A DNA stretch of 64,000 bases from Candidatus Kapaibacterium sp. GTDB lineage: Bacteria > Bacteroidota > Ignavibacteria > Kapaibacteriales > UBA2268. Both the position numbers and the translations under genes were made by a program. The stretch lies in contig OY761611.1 in the NCBI GenBank assembly GCA_963664875.1, forward strand, positions 1,376,001-1,440,000. Direction: 5' to 3'. The notes beneath the pieces are model-generated. The model saw only the letters and a list, made by a program, of their open reading frames with translations, did not search any database and was not told where the DNA came from. Below, piece after piece: positions 1 to 45,253 of the stretch. Within the stretch, counting starts at the first letter, position 1. The number at the start of each line of letters is the position of its first letter.

Positions 1-401
1 CCATTACCCTCAATTATTATTATTTCGAAATCAGAATGGCGATGCTCCCTCTCTTGTGAAACAACAAGGTACCAATCTGCTAATCTGCTGAGTGTAGTTT
101 GCTCCGCTTCATTTAGACCGCTGAAGAAATCTGTAGATGTTATTCTCCAACAATCAGTCTTTAAATTTTTGCGAATATGAATGTAGCCTTTCATTATCAG
201 TGATTTTACAATTTCTTCTCTTGCAAATCCTTCAAATCGAATTTTTTCGTCATACTTCTTATAAGTCTTTCGGATGTTCATCAAGGTCAAACCAAAAAGA
301 TTGGGATTATCAATTACAGTATCTATGTGTTTTGCTCTCACTTCAATAACAGCAGACTCTTCAGTTATATTCTTAGGTAGAATCCAATATGCGTTTGCCA
401 T
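1..401 (-). CDS. Hypothetical protein, partial (runs off left edge); not in ORF track
   Basis: Manual translation from ATG at 401: MANAYWILPKNITEESAVIEVRAKHIDTVIDNPNLFG...FEGFAREEIVKSLIMKGYIHIRK..., open to position 1; GGAGAG RBS upstream, just after the stop of the 413-1048 ORF. Confidence 0.75.
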   Translation of the reverse strand, partial: MANAYWILPKNITEESAVIEVRAKHIDTVIDNPNLFGLTLMNIRKTYKKYDEKIRFEGFAREEIVKSLIMKGYIHIRKNLKTDCWRITSTDFFSGLNEAEQTTLSRLADWYLVVSQEREHRHSDFEIIIIEGN

Positions 402-412
402 ATCTCTCTCCA

Positions 413-1048
413 TTATTTCAAAGACAATCCCGGTAATTGTGTGCTAATAAACTTATACCACTTTCCATCATAAGCAAAAGCAGGTCTGTTGTAATCATAA
501 AACGTCTTTTCTCTTGTAACATAAAGCTGATATAAAGGCATCCTATTTATCAGCACTTGTTTATAAACCTTTTCCTTCAGCAATTGCTGTCTGCTGAAAT
601 CAATAGCTTCTTCTTCAGTCAAAGGATGAGGAAATCTTATTGTTCTTATCGCCCATCGGAAGACTAAATAACTTTCTTTATAAGTAGTTTCAGTCTTTAG
701 GATTTCATCATAATACTCTTGATCTAAGGAAATTGTATATTCAATATCTTCCTTACTTAGTCCAAGAAGTTCAAGATAAGTCTTTGGAATTGGAATCAAT
801 AAATTGTCCCATCCCTCTCTTCTTCCAATAAACTTATTTAGTTTTGTCCAACCCATTTTTTCGGCAAGGTATCTCGAGCCTTGCGGATTTTTGTAGAAAT
901 CTTTGAATTCTGCTGAGCGAGATTGAATTAGGCAACGCGTGTTGTAATATCTGTAATACTTTTTCTCTGTCCGAGTTGGAATTGAGAATCCGGGTATTGG
1001 TTTTGCTGATGGCATGGAAAATACTCCTATGTTAAAATGGAGTACCAA
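413..1048 (-). CDS. Hypothetical protein (start possibly ATG at 1015)
   Basis: 211-aa ORF, no recognisable motif; GGAG upstream of the internal Met. Confidence 0.65.
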   Translation of the reverse strand: MVLHFNIGVFSMPSAKPIPGFSIPTRTEKKYYRYYNTRCLIQSRSAEFKDFYKNPQGSRYLAEKMGWTKLNKFIGRREGWDNLLIPIPKTYLELLGLSKEDIEYTISLDQEYYDEILKTETTYKESYLVFRWAIRTIRFPHPLTEEEAIDFSRQQLLKEKVYKQVLINRMPLYQLYVTREKTFYDYNRPAFAYDGKWYKFISTQLPGLSLK

Positions 1049-1376
1049 GAAGTGGTTTTTGCTTATAAAAGCCGTATCACTTTACCACCGTGGCATTTTT
1101 GCTCGGTTGGTACACTTATGTGTTCTTGATACAAAAAATCGTTTATAATTGATTTACGTAAGAATATTGATTTTGTTATTGAAAGAACATTTCCACTTAA
1201 AATTCTAAATGACTATGATGCAAGATGTATTACAACAAATAAGATTGCAACATTCAACCAATAAGTGCAACTGATGTTAAAATATAAACTATTTTCGAAC
1301 ATCTTATAATCTATTGACTGAAAGAATAATATCACAAAGTTAGAAAGTATCGCTTAAAATAATATTTGGAATTTTT

Positions 1377-2360
1377 ATGTGTGATAAAAGACTTACGCAA
1401 TTAATATTGTACTCGAGAGACGTTCTACCGAATCAATACCCACCATCATATATTGGCAAGATGGTCAAATGTGTAGAAGATTTGCTAATACCTTTTGAAG
1501 ACACTGATAAAATAAATATAATAGTCGATGCTATATATACAATAGATGCAAAATTAAAACCGATGGATTACTTGACGGAAATTTTTGTCGAACAAGAAGA
1601 AGGCCCATATAAAAGAATCGATGAATTTGCTTATGTAAAAGCAAAATTGTTTTTATTGGAAAAACTTAAAAAGATAAAAGGTGAAAAAAACACATTTTGT
1701 AATTTTGAAAAATACGAACCGTTTTCTGAATACCCTGAGGAATTTAGATTTTCAGAAGATTTGATAAAAAATGAAATTGAATTTTTTTCTGAAGAAGAGA
1801 CTCTTGAATATTTAACAGATAAAATAAAGACACTATGGGGAATTGTAAATTTCCATCCAAATATAGATGAGACAGTTTTTGATGAGACTTTGAAAAAAAC
1901 ATATCATTTTAACTCACACACAAAATGCTCTGACATCGTTGCAAGATATTCGAAACTTCAAGAATCTGCTGCTTCAACGCTTCTGTATTTAGAGAAAGAG
2001 TATGCCTTAAGTAATAATCAAATAAAATTTCAAACCAATAATACACTTTCTAATACACGACAAGAAATAAGAAACTCTGCTTATTATACAATAGTAGAAG
2101 ATAAAATAAAATGGGAGAAACCTTTAAACCTGCTTTCAGTGTATTTATGCGAAATCGCAAAAGAAATACCTGAAATGAAAGGACTCCAAGGTAAAGCTGT
2201 TATAACATACTTTGTTGAACGATCCAAATTAATCCTAACTGAAAAAAATATTTCGTCACTAAAGACATACGCAAAAGATTACTTGAATAATACACATGAT
2301 TTCAACGATGAGCTTGATAACAAAGTAAAAGTTAACTTAAAAAATTGTCTACTATCATAA
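1377..2360 (+). CDS. Hypothetical island protein
   Basis: 327-aa ORF in very AT-rich DNA, followed by a hairpin. Confidence 0.7.
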   Translation: MCDKRLTQLILYSRDVLPNQYPPSYIGKMVKCVEDLLIPFEDTDKINIIVDAIYTIDAKLKPMDYLTEIFVEQEEGPYKRIDEFAYVKAKLFLLEKLKKIKGEKNTFCNFEKYEPFSEYPEEFRFSEDLIKNEIEFFSEEETLEYLTDKIKTLWGIVNFHPNIDETVFDETLKKTYHFNSHTKCSDIVARYSKLQESAASTLLYLEKEYALSNNQIKFQTNNTLSNTRQEIRNSAYYTIVEDKIKWEKPLNLLSVYLCEIAKEIPEMKGLQGKAVITYFVERSKLILTEKNISSLKTYAKDYLNNTHDFNDELDNKVKVNLKNCLLS

Positions 2361-2364
2361 TCTC

Positions 2365-2397
2365 AGAGGGAATTTTTATTCCCTCTCATTTCTTTTT
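2365..2397 (+). terminator. Probable intrinsic terminator
   Basis: AGAGGGAAT-TTTT-ATTCCCTCT stem followed by T-rich tract. Confidence 0.65.
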
Positions 2398-2514
2398 ACT
2401 CTGCAAAACGACGCGTATATCAGTCCGAAAAAAAAAATTTAATCGGTAATATCTATTCCCTTACAACTCATATACTTTGCCTCATATTTGAAAACAATTT
2501 TCAAGGAGGCTCAT

Positions 2515-2664
2515 ATGAGAGCTATATCTAAAAAGATGATATCATCAGTGCAAGATGTGGATGCTGTTGATATATTTCTGCATTTAACAAATCCTAATAA
2601 CAAATGGATTTTCAATTCTTTACCCAATCTTTTAGTACAGAGTAGGAGGCAGCATGGAAAATAA
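2515..2664 (+). CDS. Small ORF (49 aa) overlapping the primase start
   Basis: AAGGAGG RBS at 2503-2509, ATG 2515, TAA 2662-2664. Confidence 0.5.
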   Translation: MRAISKKMISSVQDVDAVDIFLHLTNPNNKWIFNSLPNLLVQSRRQHGK

Positions 2665-3601
2665 ATCTTTCAGTAGTAATAGGACTAGTTGTCCTGAATG
2701 CGGAGCAAAAAGGGCATTTGCAGAATATGATGATGGCTCAGGTGGATATTGTCATTCATGTGGTAAAACTGTTATGTATAACTCGACTAAAAAGCAAGGT
2801 AAGCAAATGAAAAAACAACAAGAGAAGAGTCAATTGTTACAAACTATTACTCTTGAGCAATTTAATGAGTTAAGATCATGTGATGATTCAAATTTTAACG
2901 AGTATTTTGGTGAGCTATTTGGTGATGCTTTTAACAAACATTGTAATGATAATTATTTTTTAAGAGCTGATGATTATGGTGCAACAATCTTTACTTTTAT
3001 AGATTCTCAGGGATTTATTAGAAATTTAAAAAGCATGGCATACAAACAAGATGGTCATAGAGATAAGGTGGGATTTGTTCTAAAAATCAAGGAGAAAGAG
3101 ACTACTATACCTGTATTTTATGGATATCGATATGCAAAAAAAGGAAAATACGATATGATTAAATCCACTTCTGTGAAGAAACATTATTCACAGTGCCTGT
3201 TTGGTGAATACTACCTCAATTCACACAACTACATGATTGTAGGAGATCGAACCTATAAGTATGATGACAAGACCCCAGTTATATTATTAGAATCAGAAAA
3301 ATCTGTCTTAATATCTTCATTTCATTATCCATCTGTCATCTTCCTTGCAACAGGTGGAACGAATGGGTTAACAGAAGAAAAAGCGGAAATATTGAAAGAT
3401 AGAATTGTTTATATCATGTTTGACAACGAAGAAAAAGCTCAACTGAGAGCTGAAAAGGCAAAGATTGTTTTGACAGGAATTGCAAAGTCGGTTGATATAA
3501 TTGATATTTTCAAAAATTACAAGGTTGAAGAAGGTTATGATTTAGCTGATATTTTAGAACAACAAGCAATTTTAAGAGGAGAACAGAAAGATGACAAATA
3601 A
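2654..3601 (+). CDS. Primase-like protein (zinc ribbon + TOPRIM, DUF6371-like)
   Basis: CPECG...YCHSCG zinc finger; LFGE, ESEKS, LATGG, FDN and GYDLAD TOPRIM-type motifs; AGGAGG RBS. Confidence 0.8.
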   Translation: MENKSFSSNRTSCPECGAKRAFAEYDDGSGGYCHSCGKTVMYNSTKKQGKQMKKQQEKSQLLQTITLEQFNELRSCDDSNFNEYFGELFGDAFNKHCNDNYFLRADDYGATIFTFIDSQGFIRNLKSMAYKQDGHRDKVGFVLKIKEKETTIPVFYGYRYAKKGKYDMIKSTSVKKHYSQCLFGEYYLNSHNYMIVGDRTYKYDDKTPVILLESEKSVLISSFHYPSVIFLATGGTNGLTEEKAEILKDRIVYIMFDNEEKAQLRAEKAKIVLTGIAKSVDIIDIFKNYKVEEGYDLADILEQQAILRGEQKDDK

Positions 3602-4652
3602 TTTAAAACCGATAAGAGAATTCAATCTTATTCAAGAGTTGAATAACTATAATCACAAAAAGATTAAACAAAACACAATGAATTTTCGATTGGAACAAGC
3701 TGCTAATCAACCTCAGATGGAAGAATTATTTGGTTCTTATTTACAACGTGGAGAAATTTCAATAATCGCAGGTAACACAGGAGATGGTAAATCCACTTTA
3801 GCAGTTCAAATTGCTGACAGAATCACAAGGCAAAAAGGAATATGGAATGAAGTGAATACGCAAAAATATCCAATAATATACTATGATTTTGAGATGTCAG
3901 ACCAATCATTGCTAAAAAGATATCAATCTTATACTTTCGAATCTAACTTTTATTGTCCTGACGTTAGTGAAATTATTAAGAATTCAAATGGCGTATTTTC
4001 TATAGATACAATCAAGAATGATATCAACACTTTTGATGCTAATATAATCTTTATCGATAATATTACTGCAATGTCGCAAAAATCAACAATTGATCAAGAC
4101 TCTGCAAATAAACTAATGCGTGGATTAAAAACTCTACAAAGTACGTACAATACCACTATTTGTGTGTTAGCTCATGTGCCTAAAATTCCAAGTAATGTTC
4201 CTTTGCATATTAACCATGTCGCAGGGAGTAAAAATATTGTAAATTTTGCAGATAGTGTGCATATAATCGGACAGAGCAATCAATTACCTAATAGACGTTA
4301 TCTGAAGCAAGTTAAAAATCGTAATTCAGAAATGGAATCACAGGTAATGGTTATAGATTTAATCTGCGAAGATTATCTTCATTTTGATTTTATCAAGATG
4401 GATGATGAACGTAATCATATCGATGTTGATACGATTATGGAAGATAATAAGAAAAATAAACATATTGACATTGCTAATGAATTGATTGGTACTGATGCAA
4501 TAAAATACACTGATTTTGTAGATAATTACGCAAAAAAATACAATAAATCGATTGAAACGGGTAAGAAAGCAATTCAATATTTGAAGTTACACAATATAAT
4601 ACAGCAGAACGAATCGAAAGAATGGGAAGTCAATCCTGACTATCTAATTTAG
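3591..4652 (+). CDS. AAA ATPase / RecA-DnaB-type (RepA-like) helicase
   Basis: Walker A AGNTGDGKST, YYDFE, Walker B IIFIDN, LAHVPK, AGSK; overlaps primase end. Confidence 0.85.
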   Translation: MTNNLKPIREFNLIQELNNYNHKKIKQNTMNFRLEQAANQPQMEELFGSYLQRGEISIIAGNTGDGKSTLAVQIADRITRQKGIWNEVNTQKYPIIYYDFEMSDQSLLKRYQSYTFESNFYCPDVSEIIKNSNGVFSIDTIKNDINTFDANIIFIDNITAMSQKSTIDQDSANKLMRGLKTLQSTYNTTICVLAHVPKIPSNVPLHINHVAGSKNIVNFADSVHIIGQSNQLPNRRYLKQVKNRNSEMESQVMVIDLICEDYLHFDFIKMDDERNHIDVDTIMEDNKKNKHIDIANELIGTDAIKYTDFVDNYAKKYNKSIETGKKAIQYLKLHNIIQQNESKEWEVNPDYLI

Positions 4653-5028
4653 TGTAATTAGTGTAAAAACAATTAGTGTACTTTTACACTTTACACTTTA
4701 CACTTACATCTTTCTTTGGGTGAGCTTTTAAGGGCTCACCCTTATTTTTGATTTTAATCGTAAGAAAAAAAAGAAATTTTCTAAACTATTTAAACAACAC
4801 AGTTTACTTCAATTGATTTATATCCTTATTATATCAAGAAGTTGATTTCTAAGAATACAAAGAATTCTTTTTTTATTTTTCGAAAATTATCTACCTAATT
4901 AAGTTTAGTAAGCTTCTTTTAGTTCTAAATATTCTTTTCTTTTATTTTGACAAATAACAAACCTGTTGCAATTGCAACTATAGTGTAAAGTGTAAAAGTA
5001 CACTATTTATTTTTACATCTTTTACACT
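4651..5028. repeat. AGTGTAA/TTACACT heptamer clusters with 24-bp perfect inverted repeat; candidate replication origin
   Basis: 4674-4697 TAGTGTACTTTTACACTTTACACT is the exact reverse complement of 4982-5005; about 10 exact or near heptamer copies; AT-rich centre. Confidence 0.7.
4718..4749 (+). terminator. Probable terminator after helicase
   Basis: GGGTGAGC...GCTCACCC stem then TTATTTTT. Confidence 0.65.
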
Positions 5029-5395
5029 AACTCCGAAATCCAAAATCTATTTGCAAAACATACAGTCGTATGAGTCGTAATATTATAATAAGGAAGTATT
5101 TTTGAAATGGTAAATATTGAAGAAATCTATATAATTGGGTGCTCTGACGGGTGACTGGGGAAACAAAAAAAGGTAGAACCTTTACTAGCTCTACCGTTTC
5201 ATTGATACCGAGTACAGAAGGAGGGTGATTAGAATCAAAATGTATCGGATGATTTAACACATTCTTTTTTTGTTTTTCGCTTCCTCTCACAACTGAAAAG
5301 TCAAGAATTCTAAATACTCACTATGCCATCTTCAAATATTTTCGCCCGTTATCTTCAATAATCTGATTTTTCATTATTTGTATCTTTTTCGGAGA

Positions 5396-5498
5396 AGTAA
5401 GCCAATAATTTTTACAAAAATACAAAATTTATGTTTTTTTCTCTTCTGCATTTGAAAGCAATCTTATGCAGGATTAGTTTAGCAAATGGGGATCAATT
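5396..5498 (+). repeat. ~100-bp imperfect direct repeat, copy 1 (left of cas operon)
   Basis: Aligns by eye with 18544-18645 (AGTAAGCCA...ACAAAAATACAAAATTTATGTTTTTT...TTATGCA...TTAGCAAATGG). Confidence 0.85.
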
Positions 5499-5690
5499 TT
5501 AATCGAGAAAATTGGGTTATTTTTTGGAAAATTAAGATATGCAACCCTCAAGGCAGCAATATAAATATCTCATATATGGTTTCCAATTATCATATAATAC
5601 ATTTTTCGAAGGAGATAATCAGTTCTATATGAATTCTAACTTGAAAATAGTTCGTCAAGTTATCCGTTCGCTTTGTAAATCTCAAATCAA

Positions 5691-5760
5691 TTCCTCAATC
5701 AGTTAATTAGAGGTATAAATTAAAATATGTAACATTCACTACCTACAAGGGATGTGAAAT
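5691..5760 (+). ncRNA. Candidate degenerate mini-CRISPR / CreR-like regulatory RNA
   Basis: Two repeat-like segments ending GTATAAAT (5720) and GTGAAAT (5760); intervening 16 nt match minus strand 5855-5840 at 14/16 next to a CCA PAM. Confidence 0.6.
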
Positions 5761-5864
5761 TCAAAAGAAATCAAAATTATATAAATTCTTTTTTTAAAAT
5801 AATATTTAGATTCTTGAATCGTAAAAAACAATAGCTAATAAAGTTACATTTTTTATGGTGCATC

Positions 5865-6593
5865 ATGAGAATAGTAGTAGAGTTAGAATCTTCTAATCAT
5901 ATTCTATTACCACATTCTATCAATAGTGTTATACAGTCTTTTTTATATAATGTAGTAAAAGGTGATTCTGAATTTGATGAGATGCACAAAAGTATCAGTT
6001 ATAAAAATTTTACGTTTTCAACGATTCGAGAACGATTCCGAAAAGTAGAAGGTGGAAGACTATATGGAAATTCTATATCTTTTGTCTTCTCAACCAACCA
6101 GCAAACATTAATAAATACATTACTGAACAGTATAATGTTCGCTTCAAATTTAGATTTAGCAGGCAATTCAGTAAGATTCAAATCTGTCTCACCAATTCAG
6201 AAGAAATCCTTTACTACAACCGAGAAAATGAAGACATTAAGTCCAATAACTGTCTACGATGATATTGTGAATTCCGAAGGTAAAAAGTTTAGGAGCTATT
6301 GTTTAGATGTGCATTCTGAAAGATTCACAAGATTACTTCGCAACAATCTGATAAGAAAAGCAAGTAAACTTTATAATTGGGATTTATCGGATTCTGAATT
6401 TGAGATTGAATGCTTATCAAACCCAAAAATTGTCTCTGCGACTTATAAGCATAAGAATAATGTGATTAAAGGCATCGATGCAATATTTAAGCTTACTGGT
6501 GATGAAAGATTGATTCAAGTTGCTTATGAAGTTGGCTTAGGCAGTAAAAATGCTCAGGGTTGGGGTTGTATAGAATTTGCAGGAGAAAAATAA
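5865..6593 (+). CDS. cas6: CRISPR endoribonuclease Cas6
   Basis: C-terminal G-loop GLGSKNAQGWG, TLSPI motif, FTFS; first gene of cas operon. Confidence 0.95.
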   Translation: MRIVVELESSNHILLPHSINSVIQSFLYNVVKGDSEFDEMHKSISYKNFTFSTIRERFRKVEGGRLYGNSISFVFSTNQQTLINTLLNSIMFASNLDLAGNSVRFKSVSPIQKKSFTTTEKMKTLSPITVYDDIVNSEGKKFRSYCLDVHSERFTRLLRNNLIRKASKLYNWDLSDSEFEIECLSNPKIVSATYKHKNNVIKGIDAIFKLTGDERLIQVAYEVGLGSKNAQGWGCIEFAGEK

Positions 6594-8467
6594 TGTTTTT
6601 AAATGCTTTATACGAAATTGGTGAATATCATAAAAAAAACATACTTAACAAAGGTGGTCTTCCTGAGCTCACTTTGAAAGAGGTACAATATCTTCATAAA
6701 ACAGGTACATATCAAAAGGTTGTAATTATGAATATACAAAGTTCCAATAGCACAGTATCCTTTTCAACCGAGGAATTAGAATCGACCGGAGATCACTCTC
6801 TACACTATTTATACAAATATCGTAATGGCTCCCAAGCAGGTAACGAATTTTCTTTTACTAACAAAATAAATATACAAAAAGAAAAGGATAAGAATAAAGA
6901 GAAAGCTGAAATCGATTGGAACAAATTCTTCAACTACTATAAAGCTAACAAAAATTCTTGGATTACTTGGTTAGAAGCTTGCATAGCTGAAGAATTTTAT
7001 CAAACAACTCAAAATATATTAAGAGCAATCATTCAAAATATTGAGAATATCAAATCTTATATTGAGACCTTATTTACGAATGATGATACTTTTAAAAAAG
7101 GCTGCATTTTTACGGTAAAATATAACGGTAAATATTTAAACGAAATCAAAGAGTGCGTTGAATGTTTTGACTATTGTGTGCAAAAACACAATAAGTCAGG
7201 AAACACAGAGCCAAATGTTTGCTGCTCTTTTTGCGGAAGTAACCAAAATGTCAGATATGGTATTCCAGAAGCATTCAAATTCGCAACCATAGATAAAGAA
7301 GGATTCGCAACTGACTTCAATGTTGACACAAATAGGGATTATCCAGTTTGTATCGAATGTCGTACAATCTTGACTTCAGGAAGACAATTTATTGATGATA
7401 ATTTGTCTTATTATTTCCACGGCTTAAAATATAAGGTTGTTCCACACTCTGTTTTTAAATCAGAAGTGTTGCTTGACAATATGTTATATAACTTAAAAGA
7501 AGCCAAAAATCCAAATTTATCTCAAAATCACTCTAATTTTATGTCTGATCCTGATGGTATCATTGAAGAAGCTTCTGAACTAAACAATAGTGTATTGTTA
7601 AATTTAGTGTTTTTATCACAGAAAGGCGTCGGTGGTGAACAAATTGATCTACTTATGCAAGATGTACTTCCAACTCGCTTAGCTGCGATAATAAAAGTAA
7701 AACATGATTTAGAAAATATGTACCCCTATAAAACGAAAGATGGTGAAATTAAACATATGCTTTTCAATATGGGCACAATCTTCAATTTTTACCAACATAA
7801 GAAAAGTAAAAATGCACCATTTGATAAATCATTTTTCGAACTTGTGGAAGCTATATTTAAAGGTGGTAAACTTAATAAAGATTTGATTGTCTCTAAGTTC
7901 ATGGATAAAATTCGGGAAGATGTTTATGAACCAGACAAAAAGCACCCCCATAACTACACTAAAGATTCCATAAGAATAATGCAATTCCTATCAAAATTAG
8001 ATATAGTAGATTTCAAATATAAAGGTAAACCTATGAAAGACAATATTTTCAAAGAATATTTTGAGCAAATAGGCATAGTCGATTCTTCATACTTAGCGGG
8101 CGTAATGCTTATCGGAGCCTTAGTAACCAAAGTTCGTATAGTACAGAAAGAAAATCTGGACAATGATCCCTTCAAGAAAAATCTAAAAGGATACAATTTA
8201 AACCGTGATGAGATTATTTTGCTTGCTAATAAAGTAAAAGCGAAGTTAGAAGAGTATAATGCTTTTAAAGGAACTGAAAATATAATTTTTGGAACTGCTT
8301 TTAAGCTTATGATGGATGCAACTCCAGTATCAAATGCCATGTCAAACTGGTATCTGATTGGTGGCATGAGTTTAGAATATGAAATTATGGGCATAGCAAT
8401 CGAATACCTAAAATCGCAAAAACCAAACTCTCAAGCAGAAGAACAAGAAAGCAATGAATCCAATTAA
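6593..8467 (+). CDS. cas8b: Type I-B large subunit Cas8b (Csh1/TM1802-like)
   Basis: ATG overlaps cas6 stop (TAATG); CSFCG...FKFATIDKEGF...YPVCIEC zinc motif; position between cas6 and cas7. Confidence 0.88.
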   Translation: MFLNALYEIGEYHKKNILNKGGLPELTLKEVQYLHKTGTYQKVVIMNIQSSNSTVSFSTEELESTGDHSLHYLYKYRNGSQAGNEFSFTNKINIQKEKDKNKEKAEIDWNKFFNYYKANKNSWITWLEACIAEEFYQTTQNILRAIIQNIENIKSYIETLFTNDDTFKKGCIFTVKYNGKYLNEIKECVECFDYCVQKHNKSGNTEPNVCCSFCGSNQNVRYGIPEAFKFATIDKEGFATDFNVDTNRDYPVCIECRTILTSGRQFIDDNLSYYFHGLKYKVVPHSVFKSEVLLDNMLYNLKEAKNPNLSQNHSNFMSDPDGIIEEASELNNSVLLNLVFLSQKGVGGEQIDLLMQDVLPTRLAAIIKVKHDLENMYPYKTKDGEIKHMLFNMGTIFNFYQHKKSKNAPFDKSFFELVEAIFKGGKLNKDLIVSKFMDKIREDVYEPDKKHPHNYTKDSIRIMQFLSKLDIVDFKYKGKPMKDNIFKEYFEQIGIVDSSYLAGVMLIGALVTKVRIVQKENLDNDPFKKNLKGYNLNRDEIILLANKVKAKLEEYNAFKGTENIIFGTAFKLMMDATPVSNAMSNWYLIGGMSLEYEIMGIAIEYLKSQKPNSQAEEQESNESN

Positions 8468-8485
8468 TAAAGTATAGGCAATAAC

Positions 8486-9439
8486 ATGAGTAATATTAAA
8501 TCTTCAGAAATCATATTTTTATATGACTTAGAAAAATGCAATCCAAATGGTGATCCAATAGCCAACAACTTACCAAGAATAGATGAAGAAACATCAAAAG
8601 TTTATGCAACCGATGTTTTTCTTAAGCATCATATAAGAGAGTACATGTATCAGAATACAATTCCGAAATTAGATGGTAATTTTGACATCTGGGTCAGAGA
8701 TACAAGAGAAGAAAATGGTGGGAAAGTAGTTGATGCAAAGAAGAGATATGAAAGTCTTAATATAAGTGCAAAAGATGATAAAGCTAAAGAAGAATTCTTA
8801 GAAAGATGCCTAGATGCACAAATGTTCGGTGCAGTAGTACCACTAAAAAAGGAAAACTATCATTTAACTGGAGCTTGGCAGTTTATGAATATCAAATCTT
8901 TACATCAAGTAGATGTAATTACAGATAAAGGTATTACTACTTTTGCTTCAGGTGATAATAAATCTCAAGGAACTTTCAGAGAAGATCACTACGTGAATTA
9001 TGCTTTGATGCAATCATATAGCAGAGTAAATGCAAATGCTGCCGAGAAAAATCTATTAAAACAAGAAACTTTAGATGCTGGTTTAGAAGCTATGTGGTAT
9101 GGAATCAAAAATTTAAATACACGTAGTAAATTGGGTCATGATTCTAAGTTACTTTTAGTTGTAGAATACAAAACAAACAATCGTTTTATTGGAAACAAAC
9201 TTAACAATTCCATAACTCTCACACTTAAGGATGGTGTAATCACAGAGAAAGGTATCAGAGCAGGTTCTGATTATAACCTTAATATGGATGCTTTACAAAA
9301 TCTATTAGTATCGAATAAATCTATTATCCACAAAATTAAATTTCACTACGAAGCTCATGATCCTCACGTTTCTTCATTTAAGGATTTTAAAGCTAATTTA
9401 CAAAAAGAAGGTATAGAGATTGAAGATTTAAAATACTAA
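8486..9439 (+). CDS. cas7: Type I-B Cas7b (Csh2)
   Basis: NPNGDP..NLPRID, TDVFLKHHIREY, DAQMFGAV, TRSK motifs. Confidence 0.93.
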   Translation: MSNIKSSEIIFLYDLEKCNPNGDPIANNLPRIDEETSKVYATDVFLKHHIREYMYQNTIPKLDGNFDIWVRDTREENGGKVVDAKKRYESLNISAKDDKAKEEFLERCLDAQMFGAVVPLKKENYHLTGAWQFMNIKSLHQVDVITDKGITTFASGDNKSQGTFREDHYVNYALMQSYSRVNANAAEKNLLKQETLDAGLEAMWYGIKNLNTRSKLGHDSKLLLVVEYKTNNRFIGNKLNNSITLTLKDGVITEKGIRAGSDYNLNMDALQNLLVSNKSIIHKIKFHYEAHDPHVSSFKDFKANLQKEGIEIEDLKY

Positions 9440-9448
9440 GGTGAAAAA

Positions 9449-10156
9449 ATGAAAGTTCTCATTTTCGAAATAAGTGGTGAGTTTGCACATTTCAAACCTT
9501 ATGATACAACTTCAACCAAGCTAAGTTACCCATTCCCAACTCCACCAACTGTTTTAGGAATGATTGGTGCCATTTTAGGTTTGTCAAAGCAAGATCAGCA
9601 GTATCTAAAAATATTGAACGATGCTAATACTAAAGTAGCTGTTTCAATTTTGAACCCAGTCAAAAAGTTACATTGGGGCTTAAATCTTCTAAATACAAAA
9701 GGTAACATTGTTGACTTATCTAACGGTCATACTCAAGTATTGACCGAGTTTATTAAAGATGCTCGTTATAGAATTATTGTGTCAATGGAAAAGCAAGATT
9801 TATATAATTCTCTCAAAGAAAGATTAGAAAAGAAAGAGTCTTATTATGATCTGTGCTTGGGTATCACAGAATGTTTAGCTGACTTTGAATTTGTAGGAGA
9901 ATACGAAGCAAGTCTGAACAAATATAATTCTATCGAAGTAGATTCTGTTATACCCATAGACGAATCAATCGAAAACAAGATAGACTTTACATCAGTACAA
10001 GAAAAAATAACAATGCCAAGAATACCATATAAAATGGAAGTAGGAAGAATTGCATCTTATAGGAATGTACTTGTGAACGAAGGAGCCAAACCAATAGCAA
10101 TAAAAAATATAGAATGTTATACGACTGATGTTTGCAATTTCTTGTTTTTGAATTGA
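9449..10156 (+). CDS. cas5: Type I-B Cas5b
   Basis: GEFAHFK...SYPFPTPPTVLGMIGAILG; LCLGITECLA. Confidence 0.93.
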   Translation: MKVLIFEISGEFAHFKPYDTTSTKLSYPFPTPPTVLGMIGAILGLSKQDQQYLKILNDANTKVAVSILNPVKKLHWGLNLLNTKGNIVDLSNGHTQVLTEFIKDARYRIIVSMEKQDLYNSLKERLEKKESYYDLCLGITECLADFEFVGEYEASLNKYNSIEVDSVIPIDESIENKIDFTSVQEKITMPRIPYKMEVGRIASYRNVLVNEGAKPIAIKNIECYTTDVCNFLFLN

Positions 10157-10157
10157 T

Positions 10158-12494
10158 ATGATTATGTTACTATCTCATCCAGACACTATATTATCAGACC
10201 ACCTCGAAGGAGTGCTGCTCAATTCTGTTCGTATGTACGAAGAAATGAATATCACTTCTTCATATGGTGTTGATTATTTAAAAGTTGTAAAGTTGGTAGC
10301 TTTGTTTCACGATTTCGGGAAGTGTACTAATTATTTCCAAAATTATATTCGTGGAGATAAAAGTGGAAGTTCTCTTTTAAGACAACATTCCATATTAAGT
10401 GCTATTGTAGTTTCACATTTAGTTATATCAGTTGTTGAAAGTAAACATGCAGAAGAACTTTCACTTTATGCTTTTCTCTCAGTATTGTATCATCATGGTA
10501 ATCTTAATAACTTATATAATAAATTGCTTGGAATCAATAGCAATGATACAATTGTATTACTCAGCCAACAAATAAATGCAGTATCCTTTGATTCAGTAAA
10601 CGAATGCTATAATCCACTGCTCAAAGATTACTTATCTATTGATATCACTTTTACGGCTGAAAAGCTGACAGAATATATTGATACTCTAAAATCTTCAATA
10701 CGTAAACTCAACAAAACTTTAAGGAAAATAAAAGAAACAAACTCTTTTGAATCTTATCTGCATTTGATGACATTCTGGTCTTTACTTGTTGATGCAGATA
10801 AAAAACATGCAAACTTCAAAGAGGTATTGCAAAAGCATTCGTCTAAAATTGATACAGATGCTGCTAAAAAGTACATTATGAAATTTCCAAAAGACGAATC
10901 ACCGATGTGTAAACTTAGAACAGAAGCTTTTGAGACAGTTGAACAGAATATTCTAAAATCATCAGACAAAGCTGATATTTTTAGCGTAGAATTGCCTACC
11001 GGAGCAGGAAAGACACTAAACGTTTTGAATGCAGCACTTCGATTGAGAAATAAAAGGTATGATGAAACCGGGAAGTACAAAAAAATTATAAACGGTCTGC
11101 CGTTTTTATCAATCATTGATCAAACAGCAAAAGTCTATAGAGACGTATTTGATTTAGATGACAGCAATTCAGATGTTATGACTGTTCAGCACTCTTTGGC
11201 TGACTATTCCTTATTCAAACAGGGGGATGTCGAATATAAAGATGATTCCAGAGCGGAGATGCTAATCGAAACATGGGAATCTGAGATAATAGTTACCACA
11301 TTTGTGCAAATATTCCATACCTTGTTTACCAATAAAAACGGCAATGCAAGGAAATTCCATACAATATCCAATTCAATTTTAGTATTAGATGAGGTTCAAG
11401 CTATTCCTTCTAAATATCATAAACTTGTAAATGAGATGTTTCAAGCTTTAGTTAAAGTTTACAACACTGATATTATTACAATGACTGCTACTAATATTTA
11501 CGAGTTCGATAATGCAAAACGTTTATGTGATGCTACATTTTATAATGACTTAGATAGAATTGTTTTGAAATATTTTGATGATGTACTAACAGTCGAAGAA
11601 TTCTTTCAAAAGCTTGATTTGCAGGCAGACAAATCTTATATGTTTGTTATGAATACAATCAAAAGTGCTAAAATACTGCACCAATTGCTGTCTGATTCAC
11701 TACAGGAAGAAGTTGCCTTCTTATCGACAGAGATTATTCCATTTCAGAGATTAGGTATCATATCTGATATTAAGAATAAAAAATATAGATTTTTGGTTAC
11801 AACGCAACTTATCGAAGCTGGAGTAGATGTTACATTTGATGTTGTCTATCGTGATATGACCAGAATGGATTCAATTGTGCAAACAGCAGGCAGATGTAAT
11901 AGGCATTACACAGATAAACAAGGAGAAGTAAATGTTATTAAGCTGAAAGACAAAAGAAAAGAGTATGCAGAGTATATTTATGATTCAATGGACTTATTCC
12001 AAACATCTGAAACGCTTAAAACATATCTTGATGGACAGAACATGATTCGAGAATCTAATTTTTACAATCTAATAAAAGACTTTAGTGCAAAACTACAGGC
12101 AAAAACAACAGATTCAAATGCTTATATTGAAGCAGTAAATCAGTTAAAATTTATCAACTCACAGGAAGACAAATATAATATTGCAACATTCAAACTGATA
12201 GATAATTCTGATTATGAGAAAATAGATGTGTTTGTAGAGTATAATCAGGAAGCCGTTGATATTTGGCAAAAGTATATGCAAATCAAGAAAATTGAAAATA
12301 GATTTGACAGGAAACTACAGTTTAAGCTTATTAAAAATATCTTCCAGAAGTATGTGATTAGCGTTTCAAAGCAAAGATATTGTACGGATTCAAATGCAGA
12401 TGGATTATATTATATACCGCAAGGGCAATTAGAATTTTCATATGGGAAGGTCGGTTTCATGGGATTTGGGCTTGAAGCAAATAATATAATTTAG
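10158..12494 (+). CDS. cas3: Cas3 HD nuclease-helicase
   Basis: FHDFGK, HHG, LVDAD (HD); LPTGAGKT, LDEVQ, MTAT, TQLIEAGVD, QTAGRCNR (SF2). Confidence 0.95.
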   Translation: MIMLLSHPDTILSDHLEGVLLNSVRMYEEMNITSSYGVDYLKVVKLVALFHDFGKCTNYFQNYIRGDKSGSSLLRQHSILSAIVVSHLVISVVESKHAEELSLYAFLSVLYHHGNLNNLYNKLLGINSNDTIVLLSQQINAVSFDSVNECYNPLLKDYLSIDITFTAEKLTEYIDTLKSSIRKLNKTLRKIKETNSFESYLHLMTFWSLLVDADKKHANFKEVLQKHSSKIDTDAAKKYIMKFPKDESPMCKLRTEAFETVEQNILKSSDKADIFSVELPTGAGKTLNVLNAALRLRNKRYDETGKYKKIINGLPFLSIIDQTAKVYRDVFDLDDSNSDVMTVQHSLADYSLFKQGDVEYKDDSRAEMLIETWESEIIVTTFVQIFHTLFTNKNGNARKFHTISNSILVLDEVQAIPSKYHKLVNEMFQALVKVYNTDIITMTATNIYEFDNAKRLCDATFYNDLDRIVLKYFDDVLTVEEFFQKLDLQADKSYMFVMNTIKSAKILHQLLSDSLQEEVAFLSTEIIPFQRLGIISDIKNKKYRFLVTTQLIEAGVDVTFDVVYRDMTRMDSIVQTAGRCNRHYTDKQGEVNVIKLKDKRKEYAEYIYDSMDLFQTSETLKTYLDGQNMIRESNFYNLIKDFSAKLQAKTTDSNAYIEAVNQLKFINSQEDKYNIATFKLIDNSDYEKIDVFVEYNQEAVDIWQKYMQIKKIENRFDRKLQFKLIKNIFQKYVISVSKQRYCTDSNADGLYYIPQGQLEFSYGKVGFMGFGLEANNII

Positions 12495-12620
12495 TCGTCT
12501 GGCTCGTATAATACAAAAATCACTGAACCTCGACGACTTATTTATTGGAGTTTGAGATACTTTTCTAATGCTACGAACGATACGATTTATTAAAATAGCT
12601 TGTTCTTTGAAAATTTGAGG
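12495..12620 (+). promoter_or_regulatory. CRISPR leader containing boxA-like GTTCTTTGAAAA (12602-12613)
   Basis: Non-coding gap between cas3 and first repeat; degenerate repeats are at the opposite end; same 12-mer occurs in both rrn leaders. Confidence 0.8.
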
Positions 12621-13244
12621 ATAGAAATACCTGCTATAAGCAGGGATGATTTGTCAGATTGTTCGCCTCTGATGCTGTTAGCTGTATAGAAATACCTGCT
12701 ATAAGCAGGGATGATGGTATATCACGAGTTGGTACACCACCATCGTAGGTATAGAAATACCTGCTATAAGCAGGGATGATGATGCAGTTGATATTGATAT
12801 TGAACCGACAGAGCAAATAGAAATACCTGCTATAAGCAGGGATGATATAGTGGTTTATAACAATGGTGAAAAAGTTACTTTTGAATAGAAATACCTGCTA
12901 TAAGCAGGGATGATTCAATTCTTTCTGGTCTATCTAATCCGAATAATTCTATAGAAATACCTGCTATAAGCAGGGATGATATGTTCTTTATGTACTTCAT
13001 TCCACTTGGAAAGTTCATAGAAATACCTGCTATAAGCAGGGATGATGGATTAAACAAAGCTCTAAAATCGCAAGGTCGTTCAATAGAAATACCTGCTATA
13101 AGCAGGGATGATTTTTCTAATTCTCCTATATAAAAAAAGCGGTCTGTATAGAAATACCTGCTATAAGCAGGGATGATTTAAGTAAGCATACATACTAAGG
13201 CAACCTGCTTCTTGATAGAAATACCTGCTATAAGCAGGGATGAT
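12621..13244 (+). CRISPR. Array segment 1: chimeric repeat ATAGAAATACCTGCTATAAGCAGGGATGAT, 10 copies (10th is the IS junction), 9 spacers
   Basis: Repeats start at 12621, 12686, 12751, 12817, 12885, 12951, 13017, 13083, 13148, 13215; spacers 35-38 nt. Confidence 0.97.
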
Positions 13245-14426
13245 TTGTTCTTTGTAAATATCATATAATATAGTAAATTATAGAAAGCCAAACACAAACT
13301 TTTCTAATCTGGGGGGATTTATGGAAAAGCAAACGTTAGTAAATTATCTTGATAAGTTGACAGATAAGCGTCGCAGGGAAGGCACACGCCATAATCAATC
13401 ATTTGTATTATTGCTGGTTTTGATGGCGACTATGAGCGGACAATATGGCTATCGTGGCATAGAAAGATTTATAAAGAAGAATGCCGAAGACATACTGAAA
13501 TATTTAAAGCCTCATAAAGATAGATTACCAACTTACGCAACAATTTTTAGAGTGGTAAATAATATAGATTTTGATGAATTTGCACAGATTTTTAAAGAGT
13601 GGTCAAAAGTTTATGCAAAGCCTCAAAGCGGTGAAATAATCAGTATAGATGGCAAAGCTTTGAAAGGCACATTAGTAGAATACAATTCGAAATACCAGAA
13701 CTTTATAAGCATTGTTTCTGCACATTCTCAATCAAGTAAAATGTCACTAAGTATAAGCAAATATGAGAATAAAAAATCAAGCGAGATAAGCGTAGTTGAA
13801 GAAATGATTAGAGATTTAGAACTGACTGGCGTAGTCTTTACAATGGATGCTTTACACTGTCAAAAAAACTCTAAGAACAATTGTTAGTACTAACAACAAC
13901 TATATTATTTGCGTAAAAAAGAATCAAGGTCGTTTGTACAAAGAACTGGAGAGTTTGAGTTCGAGCTGGTCAACAAAGATCGATTATTATAAAACCGAAG
14001 AAACTAATAGAGACAGACGAGAAACTCGTAAAGTATATGTATATTCATTAAACGATAAAATTAAGAACGAGTGGTCCGGATCACAGCAATTAGTAAAGGT
14101 ACAAAGGATTAGAAAAACAAAACAAATGCAGGAAGTTCATGTACATTATTATTTGAGCAGTCAAGAAAAACCAGCAAAGTATTATATGCAGAGCATACGA
14201 GGACATTGGGGCATTGAAAACCAGCTACATTGGGTAAAGGATGTGGTAATGAAAGAAGATGCTTGGAAAGTGAGAAATACACAAGCAGCTTCAGTCATGA
14301 GTATAATAAAGTCAATTTGTATCAATATTTTTAGGTCAAAGAAGCGTATTGATTGTACCAACTTTTTCTATGAGACTGCCGACAATGTAGAACTATTGGT
14401 GACTTTGTTAGAATGAATCAACCCTG
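13235..14426 (+). mobile_element. ISAs1-family IS, copy 1 (1192 bp)
   Basis: Ends CAGGGATGATTTGTTCT / AGAATGAATCAACCCTG (14/17 inverted match); 10-bp duplication CTGCTATAAG at 13225-13234 and 14427-14436. Confidence 0.95.
13321..14416 (+). CDS. ISAs1 DDE transposase split in two frames (13321-13887, 13847-14416)
   Basis: IDGKALKG, KSSEI, TMDALHCQK, VKKNQ, IRGHWGIENQLHWVKDVVMKED; frame break at A7 run 13862-13868. Confidence 0.9.
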
Positions 14427-14965
14427 CTGCTATAAGGGGTTTAAACTAAAAGGCAATAAGCTGTATTTGACGTTAGGACTTGATAGAAATACCTGCTATA
14501 AGGGGTTTAAACTTTGGTAATGATGCTAAGAGCTGCAGCACATCACTAATAGAAATACCTGCTATAAGGGGTTTAAACGAAGGCAGCCATGATGACATGG
14601 TAGATGCGACAACAATAGAAATACCTGCTATAAGGGGTTTAAACTTATTTCACCTCTGTGATAAAATTTTCAGCACTAAGATAGAAATACCTGCTATAAG
14701 GGGTTTAAACAATTCTAATGAATATTCTTTAGCTGTTTCCCGTGCAAATAGAAATACCTGCTATAAGGGGTTTAAACGAAATTAAAGAAAAAAAACTATT
14801 AGATTTTGCTGAATAGAAATACCTGCTATAAGGGGTTTAAACTAGACTTCAACTGAGACATAAACTGAGAAATATTAAATAGAAATACCTGCTATAAGGG
14901 GTTTAAACCATTCATTAAAAACTTACAATAAAAAAGCATGGAAAAATAGAAATACCTGCTATAAG
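14427..14965 (+). CRISPR. Array segment 2: original repeat ATAGAAATACCTGCTATAAGGGGTTTAAAC, 7 full repeats plus two IS-split halves, 8 spacers
   Basis: Full repeats at 14483, 14549, 14615, 14681, 14748, 14813, 14879. Confidence 0.97.
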
Positions 14966-16157
14966 CAGGGATGATTTGTTCTTTGTAAATATCATATAAT
15001 ATAGTAAATTATAGAAAGCCAAACACAAACTTTTCTAATCTGGGGGGATTTATGGAAAAGCAAACGTTAGTAAATTATCTTGATAAGTTGACAGATAAGC
15101 GTCGCAGGGAAGGCACACGCCATAATCAATCATTTGTATTATTGCTGGTTTTGATGGCGACTATGAGCGGACAATATGGCTATCGTGGCATAGAAAGATT
15201 TATAAAGAAGAATGCCGAAGACATACTGAAATATTTAAAGCCTCATAAAGATAGATTACCAACTTACGCAACAATTTTTAGAGTGGTAAATAATATAGAT
15301 TTTGATGAATTTGCACAGATTTTTAAAGAGTGGTCAAAAGTTTATGCAAAGCCTCAAAGCGGTGAAATAATCAGTATAGATGGCAAAGCTTTGAAAGGCA
15401 CATTAGTAGAATACAATTCGAAATACCAGAACTTTATAAGCATTGTTTCTGCACATTCTCAATCAAGTAAAATGTCACTAAGTATAAGCAAATATGAGAA
15501 TAAAAAATCAAGCGAGATAAGCGTAGTTGAAGAAATGATTAGAGATTTAGAACTGACTGGCGTAGTCTTTACAATGGATGCTTTACACTGTCAAAAAAAC
15601 TCTAAGAACAATTGTTAGTACTAACAACAACTATATTATTTGCGTAAAAAAGAATCAAGGTCGTTTGTACAAAGAACTGGAGAGTTTGAGTTCGAGCTGG
15701 TCAACAAAGATCGATTATTATAAAACCGAAGAAACTAATAGAGACAGACGAGAAACTCGTAAAGTATATGTATATTCATTAAACGATAAAATTAAGAACG
15801 AGTGGTCCGGATCACAGCAATTAGTAAAGGTACAAAGGATTAGAAAAACAAAACAAATGCAGGAAGTTCATGTACATTATTATTTGAGCAGTCAAGAAAA
15901 ACCAGCAAAGTATTATATGCAGAGCATACGAGGACATTGGGGCATTGAAAACCAGCTACATTGGGTAAAGGATGTGGTAATGAAAGAAGATGCTTGGAAA
16001 GTGAGAAATACACAAGCAGCTTCAGTCATGAGTATAATAAAGTCAATTTGTATCAATATTTTTAGGTCAAAGAAGCGTATTGATTGTACCAACTTTTTCT
16101 ATGAGACTGCCGACAATGTAGAACTATTGGTGACTTTGTTAGAATGAATCAACCCTG
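14966..16157 (+). mobile_element. ISAs1-family IS, copy 2 (1192 bp, apparently identical to copy 1)
   Basis: Same ends, same length, identical translated ORFs; duplication CTGCTATAAG at 14956-14965 and 16158-16167. Confidence 0.95.
15052..16147 (+). CDS. ISAs1 transposase split in two frames (15052-15618, 15578-16147)
   Basis: Same proteins as copy 1; A7 run at 15593-15599. Confidence 0.9.
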
Positions 16158-18490
16158 CTGCTATAAGGGGTTTAAACTTGAGATATTATTGTAAAATTGT
16201 GATTATTTGATTTCATAGAAATACCTGCTATAAGGGGTTTAAACGAGTGCAAAGTGTTCCATTCTTGTCGAGCCATACGGAATAGAAATACCTGCTATAA
16301 GGGGTTTAAACCTAATATATATTTTCATTATTCACTCCTAAATTGATAATAGAAATACCTGCTATAAGGGGTTTAAACACTACTGTGTTGAAAGATATGT
16401 TAAATGCCATATCAGATAGAAATACCTGCTATAAGGGGTTTAAACATATATTCAGTAAGAAGTTTTAAACAAGACCCATTAATAGAAATACCTGCTATAA
16501 GGGGTTTAAACTTTATAATGTCGTAATCTTTGTTAGCCTGAATGTTAATAGAAATACCTGCTATAAGGGGTTTAAACTCTGCTTCCTTATGTGATTTGCG
16601 GGTAGTACTACTATAGAAATACCTGCTATAAGGGGTTTAAACGCAAAGTTGTGCATTTTAGAAGCGACTGGCAACTCATAGAAATACCTGCTATAAGGGG
16701 TTTAAACTCGTTTTGATGCCGTTTACAACTGTGCCGATGCCTGCATAGAAATACCTGCTATAAGGGGTTTAAACGCAGCTGCAACCGGGTCATCGAGCGA
16801 TACATTGAATATAGAAATACCTGCTATAAGGGGTTTAAACATGCTTTTTGATATATTATTTGGCATTTGCAATTGAATAGAAATACCTGCTATAAGGGGT
16901 TTAAACAAGTTTGGAGTTTTCAATTTCATGTCTTCGAACAAATAGAAATACCTGCTATAAGGGGTTTAAACAAATTGATTTGAACGGCGTTGCATTCAGC
17001 ACGTCAAATAGAAATACCTGCTATAAGGGGTTTAAACACGTTTGCGGCTCTAATGCCTGCTTTTAAAAAGCTCAATAGAAATACCTGCTATAAGGGGTTT
17101 AAACGTAGATTATACTTCGGAGGAATCAGTAGAATTGATAATAGAAATACCTGCTATAAGGGGTTTAAACTTAACGAATTGGTCATTAACATAACCGATT
17201 GTTTGCGGATAGAAATACCTGCTATAAGGGGTTTAAACTGTTGAAGAGGAATGGAAGCATATTACTTGTCCTCGATAGAAATACCTGCTATAAGGGGTTT
17301 AAACGAATCAATCTCAATAAACAATATATTACTTTTAGTAATAGAAATACCTGCTATAAGGGGTTTAAACTGTTGAAGAGGAATGGAAGCATATTACTTG
17401 TCCTCGATAGAAATACCTGCTATAAGGGGTTTAAACAAAGCTGTGCCGGGGTTCGCTTAAATCTCTGATAAATAGAAATACCTGCTATAAGGGGTTTAAA
17501 CATCACTAATGAAGTCAGATTGAAGGTAGCTCGTTCGATAGAAATACCTGCTATAAGGGGTTTAAACTTGGCTGAACCGCTACGAGGCAATGGTATTGAT
17601 TTAATAGAAATACCTGCTATAAGGGGTTTAAACATGAATGCCGAGGCAGTAGAGGGGCGTGCAAGGCGTATAGAAATACCTGCTATAAGGGGTTTAAACG
17701 ACGTTCTGATATTAAGTCTTTGTCCAATCTGTACGAATAGAAATACCTGCTATAAGGGGTTTAAACAATATTGTTTTGTTAAAAGCTATCTCGAAAACTA
17801 TAATAGAAATACCTGCTATAAGGGGTTTAAACTCGTTTTTACCTGTTTTTTCTTTTGTTCCATTTTGATAGAAATACCTGCTATAAGGGGTTTAAACGTA
17901 ACTCCGTGCCAATCTCACTAAATATATTTGCATATAGAAATACCTGCTATAAGGGGTTTAAACTCAAAACTCTTAATCATATCAATACCGACTTCACTTA
18001 TAGAAATACCTGCTATAAGGGGTTTAAACCAATATTTCGAGCAGATACGAAACGATGCCGAGTTTATAGAAATACCTGCTATAAGGGGTTTAAACTTGTC
18101 AGCTATTGACAAAATGCTCAATGAAGCAGAATAGAAATACCTGCTATAAGGGGTTTAAACAATTCTGAAACATATTTTGCAATTTTTTTTAGTTTTATAG
18201 AAATACCTGCTATAAGGGGTTTAAACTTGACTACATTGTTTTCTTTACATATTCTAAATACCTATAGAAATACCTGCTATAAGTGGTTTAAACATCGAAA
18301 CTTACGGCAATGTAGCGACTGCTCTGAATATAGAAATACCTGCTATAAGGGGTTTAAACACAGTTAAAAGGTTTACTTGTCATGTGATAATAGAATAGAA
18401 ATACCTGCTATAAGGGGTTTAAATTGTGCTGACTGTATCGAATTTACGGTAGAAAATGAAATAGAAATACCTGCTATAAGGAGTTTAATT
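16158..18490 (+). CRISPR. Array segment 3: original repeat, 35 full repeats plus IS-split half, 35 spacers
   Basis: Repeats from 16215 to 18461; trailer-end variants at 18264 (G>T), 18395 (ends AAAT), 18461 (GAGTTTAATT) give + orientation. Confidence 0.97.

Positions 18491-42437: not shown

Positions 42438-45253
<2,816 letters not shown>

Follow-up and report, generated by a model that had tools for sequence, protein, structure and literature searches.

Is the DNA in front of cas6 in this window (the whole stretch of 64,000 nucleotides analysed here, from a complete genome of 3.83 Mb with 36% G+C) the source of a crRNA-like RNA that guides Cascade back onto its own operon, or is it simply upstream DNA? 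The question was raised by a first-pass annotation that placed a hidden mini-array at 5691-5858, with a short spacer aimed at the cas6 upstream region in the manner of CreR. We favor the second answer, at a probability of roughly 0.5: the stretch 5691-5858 contains no CRISPR-derived mini-array but ordinary AT-rich upstream DNA, and the matches within it are coincidental. The matches upstream of cas6 exist, yet they are indistinguishable from chance in AT-rich DNA; from matches at or near background we infer the absence of function. The cas operon would then be transcribed from an unlocated promoter, and would not be guided onto itself by a crRNA-like RNA.

The genes cas6-cas8b-cas7-cas5-cas3 form an effector operon at 5865-12494 on the + strand, with the cas6 ATG at 5865. 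The NCBIfam matches are TIGR01877 for Cas6 (1.3e-36), TIGR02556/TIGR02591 for cas8b, TIGR02590 for cas7/Csh2, TIGR02592 for cas5/Cas5h, and TIGR01587 together with TIGR01596 for cas3. The CRISPR arrays of the system follow at 12621-18490 on the same strand, broken by two 1192-bp copies of an ISAs1-family element (13235-14426 and 14966-16157); their repeat is ATAGAAATACCTGCTATAAGGGGTTTAAAC, and the 52 spacers in the window are 35-38 nt long. The operon and its adjoining array are a type I-B CRISPR-Cas system with a Hmari-like effector module. Of the adaptation genes by which type I-B is also defined, no cas1, cas2 or cas4 adjoins the operon in the window, and the single cas1 of the genome is found at 2,155,717, some 775 kb from the operon, within a second type I locus. 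Directly upstream of cas6 is the intergenic region that concerns us (5291-5864), which has 574 nt, a G+C content of 27% and no match in a search of Rfam; the 87-aa ORF adjoining it (5027-5290) has no match in Pfam or NCBIfam.

A relative with a comparable cassette, G004, has a Cas6 that is 86% identical, the same gene order and a repeat (ATAGAAATACCTAATTTAAGGGGTTTAAAT) of the same family, and it too is without adaptation genes at the operon. In the source genome and in this relative, degenerate repeats are found at the array end distant from cas3. These array-end repeats, along with two spacers shared in the same orientation with another array of the genome, back the repeat orientation assumed in the first-pass annotation (+ strand, 3' end GTTTAAAC), and all comparisons below follow it.

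Does any part of the upstream region derive from the CRISPR repeat? The starting observation holds, in that 5706-5720 (ATTAGAGGTATAAAT) agrees with the 3' half of the repeat (ATAAGGGGTTTAAAC) at 11/15 as claimed. It belongs to a candidate first repeat, psiR1 (5691-5720, + strand), that is repeat-like in its 3' half only and scores 14/30 overall, with 8/22 over the first 22 nt. The last 8 nt of psiR1, GTATAAAT, are handle-like: they match GTTTAAAC at 6/8 and the two-genome consensus GTTTAAAY at 7/8, where the consensus combines the repeats of the source genome (ending in AAAC) with those of the relative (ending in AAAT). The altered base, T to A, is one that does not vary among the 10 repeat variants profiled.

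These likenesses can be set against several backgrounds. A score of 14/30 to the full repeat is equalled or beaten at 16/545 positions of the intergenic region, and among 398,633 AT-rich genome positions 86 reach 11/15 to the 3' half, which gives an expectation of 0.12 per strand in a region of 574 nt. With gapped local alignment, psiR1 and the candidate second repeat, psiR2, both score 16 against the repeat, where the best score in 1000 dinucleotide shuffles has a mean of 17.8 (sd 2.5). The longest exact run common to candidate and repeat is 4 nt. A profile of the 10 repeat variants (source genome and relative) finds nothing in 5291-5900 with nhmmer at E<=100; an Infernal model made of the repeat sequence and its predicted hairpin, run with filters off, gives 12 matches at E<=10 in positions 1-12600 of the window and none in 5291-5864. 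A clear derivation of the upstream segment from the CRISPR repeat is therefore not seen in the full-length score, the local score or either model, and the repeat-like segments upstream of cas6 are at noise level.

A mini-array also needs a second repeat, often a degraded one, at a suitable distance. The first-pass annotation had seen one in psiR2 (5737-5760, + strand), for which the best ungapped agreement with the repeat 3' half is 10/15, at 5745. This segment does not stand up as a repeat: its local score is that of noise and it is out of register, beginning 16 nt past psiR1 as opposed to the 35-38 nt of the arrays. No recognizable second repeat is found in register 20-60 nt downstream of psiR1, and the canonical position, 5757-5786, agrees with the repeat at 12/30. 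With a spacer of 16 nt against 35-38 nt in the arrays, and with only 12/30 where the second repeat should be, the geometry is wrong. Each candidate has the potential for a small hairpin followed by an A-rich tail, in loose likeness to the true repeat, which is a point in favor of a guide or a mini-array: psiR1 has a predicted hairpin CCUCAAU/AUU(A)GAGG just 5' of its handle (z -1.7), and for psiR2 a small hairpin in two steps, ending in AAAU, is predicted that is similar to the way the true repeat folds (z -0.6). The z-scores are insignificant in both cases.

The best repeat-like stretch of the region is located elsewhere, at 5559-5588 on the + strand. It agrees with the repeat at 19/30, and its likeness resides in the first 22 nt (16/22) and not in the last 8 (3/8). 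Its local score of 23 has a P of 0.045 in 1000 shuffles, and it begins exactly 132 nt (2 x 66 nt, two array periods) upstream of 5691. One may ask whether the pieces at 5559, 5691 and 5743 are the functionless remains of an old array, or of a junction between a repeat and an insertion sequence (IS), with the inverted match described below being coincidental. Besides the spacing and the P value at 5559, the element TACCT...AGGGATG that 5740-5755 has in common with a chimeric junction of repeat and IS end would fit such a decayed remnant. Against it, the intermediate in-register position, 5625, agrees with the repeat at 6/30, the HMM and the CM have no match (at 5559-5588 or elsewhere in the region), and the relative has no array upstream of cas6. 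We regard a remnant of this kind as very improbable.

We now consider the guide and its target. The candidate guide, or "spacer", is the 16-mer TAAAATATGTAACATT at 5721-5736 on the + strand, and 5840-5855, read as its reverse complement (TAAAAAATGTAACTTT; minus strand 5855-5840), agrees with it at all but positions 6 and 14 (14/16). The trinucleotide CCA (minus strand 5858-5856) is directly 5' of the match, so that the putative target with its CCA occupies 5840-5858, and the match is located 10 nt before the cas6 ATG. All this is as the first-pass annotation described it. The seed is perfect at positions 1-5 and 7-13 and comes directly after the handle-like 8-mer, and the site it points to is 10-25 nt upstream of the ATG. 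The first-pass annotation also held that Cascade ignores position 6, in agreement with Shmakov et al. (bioRxiv 10.1101/2023.03.03.530964), according to whom type I complexes do not read it. Past the 16-mer, the next 20 nt agree with the flank of the target at 3/20.

How often would such a match arise by chance? The inverted pair is the sole one of at least 14/16 in the 574-nt region. The shuffle test that the first-pass annotation had itself called for does not lift the match above chance, since a pair of at least 14/16 appears in 298 of 1000 dinucleotide shuffles. When a handle of at least 6/8 is demanded directly before the match, the composite is found in 9.9% of 5000 shuffles, in 23/504 AT-rich tiles of real sequence and in 263/6592 tiles overall; when the handle is followed by a 10/10 seed, the figures are 14% of 5000 shuffles and 48/506 real AT-rich tiles. 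Lenient versions of the composite test are satisfied by 14-32% of controls. The strict composite (7/8 to GTTTAAAY, 14/16, and a target no more than 60 nt from the start codon) is satisfied in 0.28% of 4000 shuffles and 2/3996 real tiles, and the version with a handle of at least 6/8, a match of at least 14/16 and a CCN PAM in 0.2% of 5000 shuffles and 0/504 tiles, where the strict criteria were set post hoc and CCA was called a I-B PAM only once it had been seen. Because the criteria were picked after the fact, a fair chance figure is between the strict and the lenient extremes. Since a handle-like 8-nt word with a 14/16 match turns up in 4-10% of control regions of 27% G+C, evidence from the PAM, from conservation or from RNA is needed to single out a functional guide.

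What would a functional guide look like here? Two descriptions of known regulators are relevant. According to Shmakov et al. (10.1101/2023.03.03.530964), about 19% of bacterial I-B loci have a mini-array upstream of cas6 whose target is located between the element and cas6; position 6 may be mismatched, and a canonical PAM is beside the target. The recognition of those elements relied on BLASTN, with at least 16 bp matched to the repeat; their upstream repeat is "highly similar" and their spacers have 20-60 bp. Liu et al. (bioRxiv 10.1101/2023.03.10.532045) describe CreR and CreA as degenerated mini-CRISPR RNAs that regulate Cas in I-B, I-E and V-A systems, the autorepression being demonstrated with reporters and seed mutants. 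The first pseudo-repeat of CreR/CreA, as described there, retains mainly the 8-nt handle.

The candidate has its location and its seed logic in common with these descriptions, together with a plausible handle. The intergenic region before cas6 is long and has the putative target between candidate and gene, the seed-side match is at least 10 nt and a mismatch falls on position 6, as in the I-B mini-arrays; the proposed logic, in which a handle beside a pseudo-spacer, a PAM-proximal match to the promoter of the effector cas genes and a PAM-flanked target lead to repression and not to cutting, is that of CreR/CreA. A seed-side match of at least 10 nt is indeed found at the cas6 start, although the promoter itself is not found. 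The differences are equally plain. Where the I-B mini-arrays are recognized by a repeat match of at least 16 bp, the longest exact repeat run of the candidate is 4 nt, and the proposed spacer is 16 nt; compared with CreR/CreA, the candidate handle is at 6/8 (7/8 to the lineage consensus), the remaining part of psiR1 is at chance, and no second pseudo-repeat is in register. The Racr RNAs, or solitary repeat units (PMC10651486), are likewise repeat-like RNAs outside arrays, and are reported to interact with Cas proteins; they are described as near-identical repeat copies carried by phages, whereas the candidate is chromosomal and barely repeat-like.

With these models in mind, a CreR-like guide can be drawn whose geometry differs from that first proposed. 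An RNA would be cut, or begun, so that GUAUAAAU forms its 5' handle, and would load into the I-B Cascade. Positions 1-5 and 7-13 (plus 15-16) would pair with the + strand at 5840-5855 beside the CCA PAM, Cascade would cover the 25 nt directly in front of the cas6 ATG and reduce transcription of the operon that encodes it; with so short a match, Cas3 would not cut. In place of a 16-nt spacer, the guide could be a pseudo-spacer of 36 nt (5721-5756) whose complementarity is PAM-proximal only, as in CreA/CreR. Several features speak for such a guide, including the 7/8 handle, a seed that is perfect except at the position that type I complexes skip (10.1101/2023.03.03.530964), the rarity of the strict composite, and a position and layout that fit the I-B mini-arrays and CreR. 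In addition, no other pair of a handle and a perfect seed in the first 20 kb of the window points at the start of cas6.

The same guide has several features that argue against it. Outside the handle psiR1 is at chance (8/22) and has no HMM or CM match, the handle itself carries the T to A change at an invariant position, no second repeat follows in register within 20-60 nt, the lenient tests are passed by 14-32% of controls, and a third copy of the motif, at 5529, is left unexplained. To these may be added a + strand without a TAnnTTTG box in the region and a relative without a counterpart, both of which are taken up below. We hold a CreR-like guide in this altered geometry to be unlikely, if a serious candidate; spelled out as a degenerate, HMM-invisible guide (GUAUAAAU handle with a 13-nt seed) that represses an adaptation-less type I-B Cascade, it is in our estimate an unlikely reading.

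The third copy of the motif points in another direction. At 5529-5545 on the + strand, AAATTAAGATATGCAAC agrees at 15/17 with 5717-5733 (AAATTAAAATATGTAAC), and what looks like a guide and its target may then be two opposite-orientation copies of one binding site. In such an arrangement a motif of about 13-17 nt, TAA-r-A-w-ATG-y-AAC, would be bound in three copies by a DNA-binding regulator, with direct copies at 5529-5545 and 5717-5733 and an inverted, promoter-proximal site at 5840-5856 that overlaps the cas6 start region. It is common for an operator to have several sites that face both ways. Because of the copy at 5529-5545, a protein operator is a rival of about equal standing as an explanation of the inverted match. 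A direct and an inverted partner that share one member are found in 64/2000 shuffles and 8/504 real AT-rich tiles, which favors the operator; the pattern, however, was found post hoc, and its p, about 0.02-0.03, carries little weight. Also against an operator, the genome has no copies of the exact 13-mer other than those upstream of cas6, one per strand. No regulator gene was identified adjoining the operon (the 87-aa ORF has neither a Pfam nor an NCBIfam match), and the motif is not conserved in the relative. Taken by itself, the operator is quite unlikely.

An inverted match within a transcribed leader may also act as RNA. If the operon had a long 5' leader, 5721-5733 would pair with 5843-5855 in a cis-acting hairpin and mask the region upstream of the cas6 start, and this pairing is in fact present in both the minimum-energy and the centroid folds of 5700-5880. 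The fold as a whole is ordinary, however (z -0.41, with 72/200 shuffles folding at least as well), the loop would be about 100 nt, and nothing of it is conserved. A hairpin of this sort we rate as highly improbable, and even jointly with the relic described above it is improbable. The preferred reading continues to be that of ordinary AT-rich DNA with coincidental matches.

Can the PAM decide between a guide and a coincidence? PAM choice varies among I-B systems. In C. difficile, experiments have established CCN/YCN as a type I-B PAM (PMC8406132), so that the reliance of the first-pass annotation on CCN is sound for that organism and lends some plausibility to the guide, but it has no bearing on the Cas8b of the present system. 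The PAM of this system would have to be read from protospacers, and none came to light for any spacer tried. Among the 52 window spacers, the search against the own genome gives two full-length matches, both of which are spacers of the second array and neither a protospacer. Three array stretches against 50,697 phage records yield nothing, or matches at the level of chance (E 0.2-0.8, to Streptococcus and Bacillus phages). When the main array and 7.9 kb of the second one are compared with 254 genomes of the order, only other arrays and partial AT-rich words of 23-29 nt match, and the remaining arrays match only arrays in four other genomes of the genus. Eight exact spacer words of 26-28 nt searched against viral contigs, and one against a metagenome collection, have 0 matches. 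For 364 distinct spacers (those of the relative and of the second array), one matched a multi-copy REP-like word in its own genome; the first 1-5 nt of the spacer fall outside each match, and a PAM cannot be read from it.

A promoter was looked for as well. In this organism the Bacteroidota-type box is TAnnTTTG, as it is found before the 16S genes and, across 1482 upstream regions, is most frequent 28-57 nt ahead of the start codon. On the + strand of 5291-5864 there is no TAnnTTTG box, and no sigma-70-like site either; neither for the cas operon nor for the putative guide is a promoter thus recognized. The putative target shares positions with TACATTTT (5847-5854), and this word falls short of a complete TAnnTTTG box.

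The next question is whether the arrangement is conserved, with a target that varies along with its guide. In a comparison that rests on one close relative, the 874-nt cas6-upstream region of G004 has no match to 5291-5864 at E<=0.001 (at the level of BLAST), and no handle-plus-seed pair is aimed at its own cas6 start. The relative thus has neither a homologous upstream region nor an analogous pair, and co-variation of guide and target is not seen. No other Cas6 of more than 30% identity is found in 41 relatives, 401 genomes of the class, species-representative genomes or metagenome contigs; the Cas6 search finds a single locus among the species-representative genomes and none among the metagenome contigs. 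No RNA run is listed as containing 5300-6600. The stretch is also present in 6 DNA runs of 2 studies, and the contigs of 4 of these runs are identical over 4700-12700. As the letters are identical in the runs, with neither insertions nor deletions, they offer no strain variation in which co-variation could be tested. In sum, the hidden mini-array claimed for 5691-5858 is not supported, on three counts, namely that no repeat-like sequence rises above background, that no second repeat is at the canonical distance, and that there is no conservation in the relative. As a separate observation, the relative has 6-7 tandem units of 60 nt about 1.7 kb upstream of its cas6 (L015 14491-14952), partly inside a 162-aa ORF.

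If the type I-B locus has no adaptation genes, from where do its spacers come? The second type I locus, at 2149157-2176348 of the genome, contains genes in the order cas6, unknown, cas3, unknown, cas7-like, cas4, cas1, cas2, adjoins a tyrosine recombinase gene, and has an array of about 19 kb whose repeat is CATCTAATCGCACCACTGTAGTATTGAAAT; arrays of this repeat family are found in several genera of the family. Two window spacers (18161-18196 and 18227-18263) recur in the second array (2169572-2169606 and 2163632-2163667 of the genome, at 35/35 and 34/36), in the same orientation and with the same 5' boundary, next to a repeat that ends in ATTGAAAT. A third window spacer, 14579-14614, agrees at 84% with 67652-67693 of contig C1 in the relative G004, within the second-type array there. 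The arrays with common spacers carry unrelated repeats. Taken with the single cas1 of the genome, the common spacers suggest one supplier for both arrays, namely the adaptation genes at the second locus. The layout is the same in the relative, where the adaptation genes are not beside the type I-B operon.

The second system has a candidate of its own upstream of cas6. About 600 nt upstream of that gene are two 35-nt direct repeats (L014 2463-2497 and 2528-2562) that are 94% alike, 65 nt apart, or one array period, and flanked by G-rich and C-rich arms. They have TATTGAAA in common with the 3' end, or handle, of the repeat of the second system, and the first copy is followed by 10 nt (TACAATATTA) that are found again about 55 nt before the cas6 of that system, the match being short. 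Judged by its sequence, this pair looks more like a two-repeat mini-array than does the candidate upstream of the type I-B cas6. There is no counterpart of the pair in the relative.

We turn to the arrays of the window, which contain a better-founded observation than the mini-array. The ISAs1-family element that breaks them has 1192 bp, a transposase in two overlapping frames (188 and 189 aa), ends CAGGGATGAT...ATCAACCCTG and a 10-bp target duplication. It exists in seven copies in the genome (the two of the window and those at 2078469, 2085321, 2173057, 2592041 and 3618111), six of them identical. Besides the two of the window, one copy is inside the array of the second system. The insertion sites are CCT(N4-7)GGGG-like words or REP-like palindromes, and the CRISPR repeat (CCTGCTATAAGGGG) resembles them, which explains why two insertions occurred at the same position of two repeats.

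The ten leader-proximal repeats, 12621-13244, are chimeras in which 20 nt of the normal repeat are joined to CAGGGATGAT, the first 10 nt of the IS, and the same is found at 14946-14975. The tenth chimeric repeat is the actual junction of repeat and IS, and there are nine unique spacers among the ten. These chimeras fit a continuing acquisition of spacers after the IS had entered the first repeat: a ruler-type integrase would measure 30 bp from the leader and copy the chimera at each acquisition. The chimeric repeat folds strongly into a hairpin (-8.7 kcal/mol, z -3.1), and GGGATGAT, which would serve as its 5' handle, is not the same as GTTTAAAC. In a text search of the literature, no publication was listed that uses the words "chimeric repeat" in this sense. 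The observation on the IS and the chimeric repeats is more solid than the mini-array finding.

The cassette has further features at its borders. A direct repeat of about 113 nt, at 5387-5498 and 18535-18645 (84% identical), brackets the cas operon and the arrays and contains a small inverted repeat CTGCAT...ATGCAG; part of it (5438-5541) is found in four copies, at 82-83%, in another genome of the genus. This repeat may mark the borders of an inserted cassette, or may be a multi-copy regulatory or mobile sequence. The surroundings of the cassette resemble those of mobile elements (1377-4652, 18708-19661 and 19759-20123), with a DUF6371/zinc-ribbon protein and an AAA_25/DnaB-like ATPase upstream, and with a protein that has an HTH_17 (excisionase-type) domain and a tmRNA gene downstream. 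A tmRNA gene is a common integration site. Elsewhere in the window there is a SAM-I/IV riboswitch at 1046-1137, and two complete rRNA operons, each with 16S, two tRNAs, 23S and 5S, are in tandem on the minus strand at 42203-52552.

What would the guide mean for the biology of this lineage, if it were true after all? It would join the I-B mini-arrays already known upstream of cas6 as a further case, one in which the repeat part has decayed to an unusual degree, and would add a Candidatus Kapaibacterium-related lineage and an extreme of repeat decay to the cas autoregulators described, which would be useful and not surprising. It would also mean that regulatory crRNA-like RNAs can outlast nearly all similarity to the repeat, and that surveys based on repeat similarity would undercount them.
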